This document shows, piece after piece, positions 4,358 through 63,515 of a stretch of 64,000 bases of DNA. The notes below the pieces were generated by a model that had not been told where the DNA came from, ran no database searches, and saw only the letters and a program-made list of their open reading frames with translations. The translations under genes and the position numbers were made by a program. Source of the DNA: a virus. Taxonomy: Duplodnaviria > Caudoviricetes. How positions within the stretch are numbered: the first letter of the stretch is position 1; every line of letters starts with the position of its first letter. Location of the stretch: the IMG/VR virus record IMGVR_UViG_3300033068_001402, positions 7,551 through 71,550 of that record; one strand, 5' to 3'.

Positions 4358-4668
4358 CCCCGTTCGAGCGCTGGTTCAGCAGCGACTTCGCCAAGGCACT
4401 GAAGGACGTCCCGAACGACACGGACGTGCTGTCCTCCGGGTTCAGCATCCGCTCCGCCTCGTGGGACCGCCGCGCCGCCTACCTGCTCTGGGTGGAGCGC
4501 GGCCGACCAGAGGCGCAGTGGCACGCTCAGACGTGGCCGACCGGCAATCCCGGCGCCGACGACTTCATGCGGCGCCGCTACGAGACCCCGCCCGCCGCCA
4601 CCACCAGTGACCCTCTGGCCGACATCCTCGGCGACGCCCCTGACCCCATGGGAGACATCCTCGGATGA
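4354..4668 (+). CDS. Hypothetical protein ending in two DPxxDILG motifs
   Basis: Coupled ORF; C-terminus DPLADILGDAPDPMGDILG. Confidence 0.7.
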   Translation: MTPFERWFSSDFAKALKDVPNDTDVLSSGFSIRSASWDRRAAYLLWVERGRPEAQWHAQTWPTGNPGADDFMRRRYETPPAATTSDPLADILGDAPDPMGDILG

Positions 4669-4922
4669 AGATCGTGACCTACGTCTCGGCCGAGCACGGC
4701 GCCGTCGCCCGCATCCTGATGGACGGCGGCTTCCTGCCGGTCATCGTCAGCGCCGCCACCGAGGAGGCCGTCCGCACCAAGGCGCAGGCGTTCTGGGACA
4801 CCGAGCGCGCCCGGCTGCAGGGCGGAGGCAAGCCACGGGGTGCGCTGGCGCCCGAGCAGATCGACCTCGAAGAAGCCATCGCCGCGACGCCGGCCAATCC
4901 CTTGGAAGACATTCTCGGATGA
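4665..4922 (+). CDS. Hypothetical protein ending NPLEDILG
   Basis: Coupled by ATGA overlaps on both sides. Confidence 0.7.
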   Translation: MKIVTYVSAEHGAVARILMDGGFLPVIVSAATEEAVRTKAQAFWDTERARLQGGGKPRGALAPEQIDLEEAIAATPANPLEDILG

Positions 4923-60925: not shown

Positions 60926-60968
60926 CGCTTAACCACGCCTCGTCCGCGGGGCCTTTTCAGGCGTTGGA

Positions 60969-63515
60969 ATGACCACCGAAGCACACGACAGCCATGTCTT
61001 GAGCGCCATCGCGCCTCTCCGTGAGGCCGGGTTCGCATTGCATTGGCTGCACCCTCGCAAGAAGCGCCCGATCGGCAAGGACTGGCAGCACCGCTCCGTC
61101 CCGTCGCTCGAAACGCTGCACTCGATGCACCAGCCCGGCAACAATCTCGGCGTCCGCCTGGGCGAGCCGAGCCTGACGCCCGCCGGCTACCTGCATCTCC
61201 TCGACATCGACATCCGCATCCCCGACCTGGCCGACGAAGCATGGGCCGCGCTCCGCGCGCTGCTGCCCGCCGTCGACCTGACCGCGCTGCCGTCCGTTGT
61301 CTCCGGCTCCGGCGGCGAGTCGCGCCACCTCTACTTCGTCACCGAGCGCCCGTTCGGCAGCAAGGTGCTGCTGACCTCAGAGGGCAAGCATCGCCGCGAG
61401 GTCATCGACCCCGAGACGGGCGAGGTGAAGCAGAAGTGGTCATACGACTGGGAAGTCGAGATCTACGGCACCTCCAAGCAGGTCGTCCTGCCGCCGAGCA
61501 TCCACCCCGACACCGGCAAGCCCTACACCTGGGAGCGGCCGTTCGACTTCCTCCTGATGGACCTGGGCATCGCGCCGTCCATCCCGGCCGCCACCATCGA
61601 GGGTCTGAACGTCGTCGAGGCCGCGACCTACGCGTTCGAGACGCGCGAGCCGCTGAAGTTCTCGCCCGGGCAGTTGGAGCGCGAGCTGGACGTCATCAAC
61701 GTCAGCGACCTGCACTACGACGACTGGATCAGGCTCGGCCAGGCGCTGCACCACCAGTTCGGCGGGTCCGCCGAGGGCTATGACCTCTGGGTCCAGCACA
61801 CCAAGCGCTCGACGAAGTTCACAGGCGAGTCCCAGCTCCGCGAGATGAAGCGCATCAAGTGGCGCTCCTTCGGCAAATACCGCGGTCAGCCGGTGACGAT
61901 GGCCACGATCCGCCAGTGGGCGCAGCAGGCCCGCATCGCCGACCTGCGCGACGCCTTCGACGAGGAGGACGACTACGAGGCGGAGACCGAGGCCGAGGTC
62001 GACCCGCTCGCCGACGTGCTGGGCGACACCAAGCCCGCGCCCAAGGCGATCGACGACCTCGACGAGTTCACGGGCGGCCAGGGCGGCGAGACCGCGCACC
62101 CGGCGGCCGGCGACTGGATGTCGCTGCTGGACCTCACCGAGGACGGCGCCGTCAAGAACACCCAGCACAACGCCGACCTGATCCTGCTGCACGATCCGCG
62201 GCTGACCGGGCTGGCCCAGATCAACGAGTTCACGCAGGAGACGGTCCAGCGGACGCCGCCAGGGCGCAAGCCCGGTCGCCGCCGGCCCGGGCCGAAGACG
62301 ACGCGCCAGCTTGAGAGCCGCGTCTGGGGCGTCAAGGACGTCCTGAACGGCGAACTGTGGTCGGACGACCGCGACACCGCCATCCGCTCGATCATCGACG
62401 CCCCGAAGACGCAGGGCGGCTACGGCTACAAGATCAGCCTCGACCACCTGCGCGCGGCCGTCGTCAACTCGGCGCACCACCACTCCTTCCACCCCGTGCG
62501 CGAGTACCTGGACGGGCTGACCTGGGATGCGACGCCCCGGGTCGAGGGTCTGTACGTCGACTTCCTCCGCGCCCCGGACGACTCCTATCACCGCTCCGTC
62601 GCGCGCCTGATGATGGTCGCCGCGGTCACCCGCATCTACGAGCCCGGGCACAAGTTCGACTTCGCCACCATCCTCGAAGGCCTGCAGGGCAAGCGGAAGT
62701 CCACCTTCATCCAGGTGCTCGGCCGCCGCTGGTTCGCCGAACTCGACGGCGACTTCCACGACACCAAGCAGATGATCGAGTTGATGCAGGGCGCCTGGAT
62801 CATGGAGATCCCCGAGCTGACCGGCTTCGGCCGCGCCGACGTGCGCGCCATCAAGGCCTTCATCAGCCGCCAGAAGGACCGCGCGCGCCTGGCCTATGCC
62901 CGGCGGGCCGGCGAGTTCCCGCGGCAGTGCATCTTCATCGGCTCGACCAACGACCGCGAGTACCTGAAGGACGACACCGGGGGCCGCCGTTTCTGGCCCG
63001 TGGAGTGCTGCCTGGGCGAGGATGAGGAGATCGACACCGACCGCCTCGACCTCGCGGCCGATCAGCTCTGGGCCGAAGCGGTCCACCTGTACCGCGAGAT
63101 GCGCGTCGCCAAGCCGCACGGCACCCTGCCCCTGTATCTCCAGGACGCCGAAGCCCGCTCGATCGCCGCACGGCTTCAGGAATCGCGCAGGGTCGAGAGC
63201 CCCGACGACGTGCTCGCCGGCAAGATCGCCGAATGGCTGGACCGCCCGATGAGCGACGGCGGCTTCGACGACGAGGGCGGCCTGCGCAACGAAACCTGCA
63301 GTGCCCAGATCTGGGTGGAGTGCCTGAACGGCGATCCGCGGGCGTTCAAGAGCACCGAGCAGGGCATGGTCAACCGCGCCATGATGCGGGTGCCGGGCTG
63401 GAGCGGGGACGGGTCGCAGATGCGGTTCAAGGTCTACGGCAAGCAGCGGGTGTTCTACCGCGGCGGTGAGGCCGGGAAGTTCGAGCGCATGGGTCTCGCC
63501 GACATCCTCTCCTAA
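60969..63515 (+). CDS. Primase-helicase (Prim-Pol, PriCT-2 and VapE/VirE-like ATPase)
   Basis: NLGVRLG..LDIDIR, RHLYF, YDDWIRLGQALH, LEGLQGKRKST, IFIGSTN..YLKDDTGGRRFWP. Confidence 0.92.
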   Translation: MTTEAHDSHVLSAIAPLREAGFALHWLHPRKKRPIGKDWQHRSVPSLETLHSMHQPGNNLGVRLGEPSLTPAGYLHLLDIDIRIPDLADEAWAALRALLPAVDLTALPSVVSGSGGESRHLYFVTERPFGSKVLLTSEGKHRREVIDPETGEVKQKWSYDWEVEIYGTSKQVVLPPSIHPDTGKPYTWERPFDFLLMDLGIAPSIPAATIEGLNVVEAATYAFETREPLKFSPGQLERELDVINVSDLHYDDWIRLGQALHHQFGGSAEGYDLWVQHTKRSTKFTGESQLREMKRIKWRSFGKYRGQPVTMATIRQWAQQARIADLRDAFDEEDDYEAETEAEVDPLADVLGDTKPAPKAIDDLDEFTGGQGGETAHPAAGDWMSLLDLTEDGAVKNTQHNADLILLHDPRLTGLAQINEFTQETVQRTPPGRKPGRRRPGPKTTRQLESRVWGVKDVLNGELWSDDRDTAIRSIIDAPKTQGGYGYKISLDHLRAAVVNSAHHHSFHPVREYLDGLTWDATPRVEGLYVDFLRAPDDSYHRSVARLMMVAAVTRIYEPGHKFDFATILEGLQGKRKSTFIQVLGRRWFAELDGDFHDTKQMIELMQGAWIMEIPELTGFGRADVRAIKAFISRQKDRARLAYARRAGEFPRQCIFIGSTNDREYLKDDTGGRRFWPVECCLGEDEEIDTDRLDLAADQLWAEAVHLYREMRVAKPHGTLPLYLQDAEARSIAARLQESRRVESPDDVLAGKIAEWLDRPMSDGGFDDEGGLRNETCSAQIWVECLNGDPRAFKSTEQGMVNRAMMRVPGWSGDGSQMRFKVYGKQRVFYRGGEAGKFERMGLADILS

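Follow-up and report, generated by a model that had tools for sequence, protein, structure and literature searches.

An acidic tag is shared by unrelated proteins of the phage

An eight-residue acidic tag sits on at least 13 (about sixteen) unrelated proteins of the phage. In our preferred reading, to which we assign a probability of about 0.6, it is a selected short linear motif and forms a lineage-private docking code, derived from an SSB tail and recognised by a shared reader. Read from the sequence, the version private to this phage is D-P-[LMF]-x-D-[IV]-L-G. The analysis centred on a 64,000-nucleotide stretch (the window, positions 7,551 to 71,550 of the viral record IMGVR_UViG_3300033068_001402), and positions are those of the window unless called genome positions. 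The carriers comprise replication, packaging, head, modification and integration proteins together with a SLOG protein and several small early proteins:

4354..4668, + strand: 104-aa protein of no known family; two tandem C-terminal tags, 4609-4632 and 4642-4665
4665..4922, + strand: 85-aa protein of no known family; C-terminal tag, 4896-4919
4919..6229, + strand: N6/N4 DNA methyltransferase; two tandem C-terminal tags, 6164-6187 and 6203-6226
29356..29682, - strand: 108-aa head-module protein at the lambda FI position; short tail E-D-P-I-G, 29359-29373
32671..34401, - strand: lambda-family portal protein; N-terminal tag, 34366-34389
34705..35328, - strand: YpsA/SLOG-family protein; C-terminal tag, 34708-34731
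37912..38643, - strand: small terminase (DUF1441); tag at residues 4-11, 38611-38634
42369..43247, + strand: PAPS-reductase-like protein; one tag at residue 2 (42372-42395), another near the C-terminus (43152-43175)
43641..44852, - strand: tyrosine integrase; C-terminal tag, 43644-43667
52473..52898, - strand: 141-aa nuclease/resolvase-like protein; weak C-terminal form ending S-V-L-G
56999..57778, - strand: Enc34/T7 gp2.5-type SSB; short tail D-D-P-L-G, 57002-57016
59854..60438, - strand: 194-aa conserved replication-module protein of no known family; ends E-D-P-L-G, 59857-59871
60969..63515, + strand: Prim-Pol/VapE primase; tag in the inter-domain linker, 62001-62024

The long copies reported by the initial annotation at 4609, 4642, 4896, 6164, 6203, 34366, 34708, 38611, 42372, 43152, 43644 and 62001 all lie in open, high-GC3 frames, and the short terminal forms it listed for the 29356 gene, the SSB, the 59854 gene and the primase end were also confirmed, the last as a degenerate copy at 63492-63512. 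The methyltransferase does carry its tags, but its gene begins at the ATG at 4919 rather than where the long ORF opens, at 4607. The start of the 85-aa gene overlaps the stop of the preceding 104-aa gene as ATGA. The 141-aa protein matches PHROG endonuclease and Holliday-junction-resolvase families. Upstream of the window, extra copies were found at genome positions 1533 and 7351 and a weaker copy at 1908.

The recurrence of the motif far exceeds chance expectation. The 71,550-bp record has 10 matches to the strict pattern, against none in 100 composition-matched second-order Markov simulations; a loose pattern occurs 14 times in the whole record against 0.14 expected from such simulations. 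A profile trained solely on small-terminase N-termini from other phages and run on the called proteins gave 13 matches, compared to 0.98 in residue shuffles (shuffle maximum 4), and 13 of the 77 proteins end in [LIVM]-G where 1.6 are expected. Across three proteomes the tag was the sole over-represented short word; the same enrichment analysis returned no recurring basic motif complementary to it that might act as its reader.

Tag variants are private to each genome and sit on proline/alanine-rich tethers

Comparison with related phages showed both retention and turnover of tags. Orthologs keep tag variants at matching places: the G005 ortholog of the PAPS-reductase-like protein is tagged at both corresponding positions, tagged integrases occur in G003, G004 and RcCWillis, and the primase linker tag is found at the equivalent place in G003, G004, G005 and an Asticcacaulis prophage. 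The G005 ortholog of the 141-aa protein carries a full N-terminal tag. In about 50 related phages the N-termini of the small terminase and the portal either bear one and the same variant or both lack the tag. Tag identity is 0.569 within genomes and 0.420 between them, a difference that none of 3000 label permutations reached; every genome uses a tag variant of its own.

The tag is present in the cultured Casjensviridae DSS3-P1, RcCWillis, AchV4 and N133. Other clades (G009, G010 and YSD1) have different shared tails on SSB, primase, nuclease and helicase, as well as on small terminase, head protein and a methylase; in YSD1 the differing tail is on primase, helicase and nuclease, and in G009 the polymerase itself is tailed. 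The clade without a portal tag uses another C-terminal tail; the polymerase is present in some of its members, and its presence or absence does not discriminate. A Caulobacteraceae host, assumed at the outset, is not established, the prophage relatives spanning several alphaproteobacterial genera, including Asticcacaulis.

Selection acts on the peptide. Codon identity at identical tag residues is 0.47, compared to 0.55 expected from codon usage; the codons are thus as varied as codon usage permits and form no repeat at the DNA level, in agreement with the earlier reading of the synonymous variation. Tags are located at N-termini, at C-termini or in linkers, on proline/alanine-rich tethers (proline makes up 12% of the tag flanks versus 5% of the proteome), and are often tandem or carried by ring-forming oligomers. 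The portal tag sits on an arm of about 40 residues that is predicted to be disordered. In AF2 models the SSB tail and portal residues 1-50 score a pLDDT under 50, the SSB core being confident and the portal monomer weak overall (mean pLDDT 59.6).

The tag resembles the acidic tail of the phage SSB

The phage SSB, an OB-fold protein, matches PF10991 (E 2.8e-18), and its profile matches PDB entries 5ODJ, 4JG2 and 4KLK. The tails of 45 SSB homologs form a gradient from the short form to the full tag, and the SSB tail type is also present on the primase linker and end, the 194-aa protein and the nuclease orthologs. At the level of sequence, the tag is a variant of the acidic C-terminal tail of this T7 gp2.5-type SSB. 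The short forms on the SSB, the 194-aa protein and the head protein place an acidic run with a terminal hydrophobic residue at the extreme C-terminus; the long form is found at N-termini and in linkers too.

Crystals of Enc34 ORF6, of two DUF2815 proteins and of T7 gp2.5 show the acidic C-terminus lying in the concave sheet of a neighbouring SSB, and the gp2.5 tail has been implicated in binding both the polymerase and the primase-helicase (PMC5686142). The phage studied here shares with T7 an SSB of the gp2.5/Enc34 type, an acidic tail with a hydrophobic anchor, and a tail type common to the SSB, the primase and other replisome proteins. Unlike T7, it has at least 13 carriers, including small terminase, portal, head protein, integrase and DNA-modifying enzymes; the long form, often tandem, does without a free carboxyl end, and the polymerase is a different, distant family-B enzyme. 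The tip of bacterial SSB (D-D-D-I-P-F), which organises DNA metabolism, is likewise an acidic, hydrophobic-ended peptide on a disordered linker, but there one tail meets many readers, whereas here many tail carriers would meet few.

The initial annotation knew of no described system of this kind, which was too strong: the tag varies an SSB tail, and the gp5 polymerase of T7 is a docking site for the gp2.5 and gp4 tails (PMC5686142). Nevertheless, in the literature searched we found no description of a phage-private code spanning replication, DNA modification, integration and head assembly. Proteome-wide short linear motifs that serve one hub are well known from clamps and from bacterial SSB.

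Candidate readers of the docking code

Retention in orthologs, co-variation of the small terminase and portal tags, and genome-private variants all indicate a short linear motif that points to a shared partner. This part of the initial proposal gained from our analysis; the partners it named did not. The acidic, leucine-rich peptide, used across the phage family and presented on the disordered tethers of at least 13 proteins, probably serves as a docking tag that ties DNA replication, modification, integration and packaging together. It would draw its carriers to one shared reader, or a few, which would gather these activities on the same DNA or machine.

Our tentative first candidate for the reader is the concave groove of the SSB itself, although a groove filled with DNA may fail to hold tags. 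The tail-less DNA polymerase or helicase, which would read the tag by analogy with T7, and the large terminase are both more doubtful, and a host protein or something else again would each be more doubtful still. No single reader explains all carriers. The portal and the head protein are poor matches for a replisome reader, and so are the integrase, the primase and the small early proteins for a terminase reader; in G009 the polymerase cannot be the sole reader, since it carries the tail. A basic N-terminal extension of the large terminase was considered as a reader and rejected; it occurs in the nearest relatives only.

In its widest form the proposal would describe a fast-drifting, SSB-tail-derived address code used throughout the Casjensviridae, with lineage-private variants and one reader, possibly the SSB groove, that brings the replisome, the enzymes of DNA modification, integrase, terminase and nascent portals together in a single replication-packaging factory; we regard it as possible, and on balance rather doubtful. 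If true, replication and packaging would be physically linked, the delivery of accessory enzymes such as methyltransferases to phage DNA would be explained, and there would be a portable tag for bringing proteins to that DNA. The question lends itself to direct testing, since tags are present in phages that are in culture and have laboratory hosts, namely Ruegeria phage DSS3-P1, Rhodobacter phage RcCWillis and Chi-like Salmonella phages.

Alternative explanations for the tag

The tails might have no shared partner and instead be intramolecular DNA mimics, each shielding the DNA-binding surface of its own protein in the way suggested for SSB tails, with likeness within a genome arising from composition and drift. 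Most carriers do bind DNA, and the acidic tail of T7 gp2.5 is reported to compete with DNA for the protein's own surface (reference 14 of PMC5686142). This explanation is unlikely: one variant is common to small terminase and portal in genome after genome, the genome-private likeness of tags exceeds chance, and the head protein and small early proteins have no expected DNA-binding surface to shield. In addition, the AF2 models show no cis docking of the SSB tail or the portal arm, a result that does not address binding in trans.

We rate as equally unlikely that the tags are clamp-binding peptides like PIP boxes or T4 gp45 tails and tether DNA enzymes, and packaging by way of these enzymes, to a clamp, be it the host beta clamp or an unrecognised one of the phage. 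Clamp-binding peptides (the PIP box, the T4/RB69 gp45-binding tails and the bacterial motif) are also short peptides at the ends or in the linkers of many DNA enzymes that address one hub, the tag positions would suit them, and the clients here (primase, nuclease, methyltransferase, integrase and the G009 polymerase) recall those of PCNA or gp45, with a distant family-B polymerase that has no visible processivity factor. However, the beta-clamp model PF02768 found no match in the genome while its controls responded, and no clamp appears among the Pfam and PHROG annotations. The tags have D at positions 1-2 and, compared with the bacterial clamp motif, lack both its glutamine and its L-F pair; of the motifs Q-L-[SD]-L-F and Q-x-x-L-x-x-F-F they share only the hydrophobic spacing, hydrophobic-x-x-hydrophobic-hydrophobic behind acidic residues, which is like that of a PIP box. 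Tags on packaging and head proteins and the single hydrophobic residue in the short tails of other clades also count against a clamp. Of the host-own proteins with the tag pattern in five host genomes, only CheZ and PopZ could be placed in a family, and neither is a clamp client.

Another alternative makes the tag a procapsid-loading signal, read by scaffold, protease or capsid interior, or else a cleavage mark. The T4 capsid targeting sequence, the HK97 protease tail and encapsulin or microcompartment cargo peptides likewise are shared terminal addresses on flexible linkers, and the carriers include the portal and a head-module protein, whose AchV4 counterpart is a virion protein. The one hint of cleavage comes from lambda, where a 22-residue leader at the portal N-terminus is annotated as removed (NC_001416) and contains a degenerate L-L-G; if the portal of our phage sheds its leader as lambda gpB does, its tag would act before packaging. 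We nevertheless find capsid loading improbable. Mass spectrometry of virions of the relative AchV4 detected structural-module proteins only, with no sign of packaged enzymes, which also weakens the earlier suggestion of a phage scaffold or compartment as the partner. Small terminase, SSB and primase would be unexpected cargo, some carriers act outside the capsid, and the protease/scaffold, with a net charge of -25, would be a poor partner for an acidic tag.

Somewhat more improbable is a degron or chaperone tag read by host Lon, ClpXP or GroEL that times or assists the carriers. The peptides are terminal, exposed and partly hydrophobic, GroEL is required for assembly of the lambda portal, and several lambda regulators are protease substrates. 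Against this, DnaK and GroEL bind acidic peptides poorly, a degradation tag on the abundantly needed portal and terminase is difficult to account for, and private variants among close relatives suggest a reader that diverges with the phage.

Finally, mimicry of the CheY-binding peptides of FliM (N-terminus) and CheZ (C-terminus), with the tags binding a host receiver domain, is hardly credible, even though the tag DNA pattern picked out CheZ phosphatases in the five host genomes, the CheZ C-terminal peptide, which is of the S-Q-x-x-I-D-A-L-L type (S-Q-D-D-I-D-A-L-F-D, sometimes tandem), is near-identical to some relatives' variant in its core (I-D-A-L-[LF] after acidic residues), and Chi-like members of the family are, as the YSD1 paper reportedly states, flagellotropic: FliM and CheZ are host chemotaxis proteins, a search for the receiver domain (PF00072) found none in the phage genome, tags occur in phages of Klebsiella and Synechococcus, hosts that to our knowledge lack flagellar chemotaxis, and why a dozen DNA enzymes should bind CheY is not evident.

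Tag codons at gene junctions

An origin of the tag at the DNA level was rejected, as it fails for the N-terminal and internal copies and for the variety of codons. At three gene junctions the next ATG shares nucleotides with the final tag codons (GGA TGA); G-G-A-G lies upstream at one of the three. These overlaps may help translational coupling.

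Recurrence of the tag and selection on the peptide

The window spans bases 7551–71550 of an IMG/VR virus record (71,550 bp, graded complete). A six-frame scan recovered in place each long copy of the acidic octapeptide D-P-[LMFI]-x-[DAE]-[IV]-L-G (the tag) that the initial annotation had reported. The short C-terminal forms described there, D-D-P-L-G (SSB), E-D-P-L-G (194-aa protein), E-D-P-I-G (head-module protein) and G-L-A-D-I-L-S (primase), were also present. Upstream of the window we found additional copies in a 68-aa zinc-finger-like protein and a 165-aa protein, and a weaker copy in a 121-aa protein. 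The tag is far more frequent than expected: genome-wide, the strict pattern matched 10 times versus 0 expected and the loose pattern 14 times versus 0.14 (100 second-order Markov simulations). A profile trained solely on small-terminase N-termini from other phages (cut-off at least 11 bits) gave 13 matches in the called proteins versus 0.98 for residue shuffles (maximum 4), and 13 of the 77 proteins end in [LIVM]-G, compared to 1.6 expected. At residues common to two copies, the same codon was used in 47% of pairs versus the 55% predicted by codon usage; the peptide, rather than a DNA repeat, is therefore under selection, as originally proposed.

Carrier proteins and placement of the tag

Pfam and PHROG searches upheld the gene names assigned earlier.

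Tag carriers identified by Pfam/PHROG
N6/N4 methyltransferase (start ATG at 4919)
YpsA/SLOG protein
Small terminase (DUF1441)
PAPS-reductase-like protein
Tyrosine integrase
Lambda-family portal
Prim-Pol/VapE primase

The SSB is a member of the Enc34/T7 gp2.5 family. No family match was found for the small tagged proteins, whose early operon also holds MazG, thymidylate synthase, dNMP kinase and ribonucleotide reductase. The class II ribonucleotide reductase ORF (1024 aa, window 799–3873) had been annotated with a putative intein.

Tags occupy one of three places (residue 2–5, the last residue, or a linker between domains), and four proteins have two copies each. Their flanks are rich in proline (12% versus 5%) and alanine, and AF2 assigns a pLDDT below 50 to the SSB tail and to portal residues 1–50, so the tags are peptides borne on flexible tethers. 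At three consecutive gene junctions the tag ends in the codons GGA TGA, which the start codon of the following gene overlaps as ATGA:

Window 4662–4668, ATGA junction
Window 4916–4922, ATGA junction
Genome 7371–7377 (upstream of the window), ATGA junction

At one junction G-G-A-G lies within the tag codons approximately 10 bases upstream, and the tag-coding DNA may double for translational coupling. A resembling octamer, Q-D-M-A-D-V-M-G, is present at residue 523 of the tape measure protein (window 24073–24096, minus strand) and is kept at the equivalent position in a relative's genome, G003; it may be a chance match or a genuine internal copy.

Retention and co-variation among relatives

We sampled 80 portal relatives from IMG/VR and 10 prophages from bacterial genomes (Sphingomonas, Sphingopyxis, Bradyrhizobium, Asticcacaulis, Aquamicrobium, Gemmobacter, a Rhodobacteraceae genome and one Pseudomonas). 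Approximately 60 of the 80 relatives carry a tag variant at the portal N-terminus. The small terminase opens with the same variant as the portal of its locus, and when the tag is missing from the portal it is missing from the small terminase as well. Each of four complete genomes has a private variant: D-P-[LM]-x-D-[IV]-L-G in this phage, D-D-F-D-x-[LF]-L in G003, D-[DP]-F-E-x-M-L-G in G004 and D-D-F-D-x-L-L-G in G005. Tag identity was 0.569 within versus 0.420 between these genomes, a difference reached in 0 of 3000 label permutations. Among orthologs, the tag is retained in the small terminase, the portal, the primase linker (same residue) and the PAPS-reductase-like protein (both ends), while the integrase and a nuclease/resolvase-like 141-aa protein gain or lose it or switch ends. 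This mix of constant and shifting carriers is typical short-linear-motif behaviour.

In many relatives the small-terminase tag is followed by an AT-hook-like R-G-R-P (alignment A2, columns 40–60), which is absent from the small terminase of this phage. In the Sphingomonas sp. RB3P16 prophage the portal has two tandem N-terminal tags; the large terminase ORF (L099:5839–9096) encodes 1086 aa, where relatives have approximately 730; the excess suggests an insertion, possibly an intein.

Cultured phages carry the tag as well. In Ruegeria phage DSS3-P1 it is on the small terminase, portal, methyltransferase (in tandem), head-module protein and small proteins; in Rhodobacter phage RcCWillis on the small terminase, portal and integrase; and in Achromobacter phage AchV4 and Klebsiella phage N133 on the portal and small terminase, both of which bear weaker variants of it in Synechococcus phage S-ESS1. 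In two further clades the portal is untagged and many proteins end in a different common acidic tail. This is an acidic run plus L in G009 and G010 (L114–L121), including the polymerase in G009, and W-D-D-E-V in Chi-like Salmonella phage YSD1 (L141), where it ends the SSB, primase, DUF2800 nuclease, helicase, small terminase, head-module protein and Dam methylase. A shared acidic tail is thus a trait of the family (Casjensviridae), with the long form of this phage representing one branch.

Relationship to the SSB tail and proposed function

Among 45 SSB homologs, C-terminal tails grade from the short form of this phage to the full tag. According to the study of Enc34 ORF6, crystals of this protein, two DUF2815 proteins and T7 gp2.5 all show the acidic C-terminus of one molecule seated in the concave sheet of its neighbour, with 842 square angstroms buried, and the T7 tail is implicated in polymerase and primase-helicase binding (PMC5686142). 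The best reading of the tag is thus an SSB tail copied onto other proteins.

Our results support a docking tag with one shared reader or a few. Our preferred model is a replication-packaging hub: through their SSB-tail-like tags, the terminase, the portal and DNA-modifying enzymes would be recruited to phage DNA as it replicates. Contacts between endonuclease VII and the portal, and between the large terminase and gp32, are precedents from T4. The principle is already known in T7, which has acidic tails on SSB and helicase-primase; in the literature searched we found no description of the breadth of carriers, N-terminal or linker positions and tandem copies, private variants that co-vary, or the extension of such tails to packaging, integration and modification. 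Tag-driven loading of enzymes into capsids is disfavoured, since AchV4 virions contain structural-module proteins only. The lambda portal has an annotated 22-residue leader, missing from the mature protein, with a degenerate L-L-G inside it; if the leader is lost here as in lambda, the portal tag would act before packaging.

Candidate readers

The genome encodes neither a clamp domain nor a receiver domain, and its polymerase is a distant family-B enzyme. The tag is the sole over-represented short word, so the reader would be a folded site rather than a second motif. The conserved large terminase, capsid protein, protease/scaffold, adaptor and HTH regulator lack the tag in every genome examined, and the helicase and polymerase lack it in most. 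The protease/scaffold is very acidic and the large terminase near neutral; for the latter alone, binding to the small terminase as well as to the portal is known. After basic residues it ends in an amphipathic hydrophobic-x-x-L-[AG]-x-x-L-[AG]-stop (window 35738–35770, minus strand). This end is present in all relatives, in tagged and untagged clades, and in lambda gpA, and is probably a portal-binding end separate from the tag.

Across five host genomes the tag DNA pattern gave 27 matches versus 2 for a reversed control. No large set of host clients sharing this tag was seen in these genomes. Once recognisable prophage genes were set aside, the matches could be assigned to two families only: CheZ phosphatases, in which the CheY-binding peptide at the C-terminus has nearly the same sequence as the tag, and a PopZ linker; other matches include one in the primase of a second prophage and several in ORFs of no known family. 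In Asticcacaulis sp. AC466 two CheZ-family phosphatases (L122:1109–2113 and L123:1381–2052) end in a long proline-rich linker followed by two copies of the CheY-binding peptide, a tandem arrangement that seems unusual for CheZ. In Bradyrhizobium sp. WSM3983 a DUF2497 (PopZ-type) protein (L127:1710–2528) has the tag-like Q-D-D-I-D-A-L-L in its proline-rich linker.
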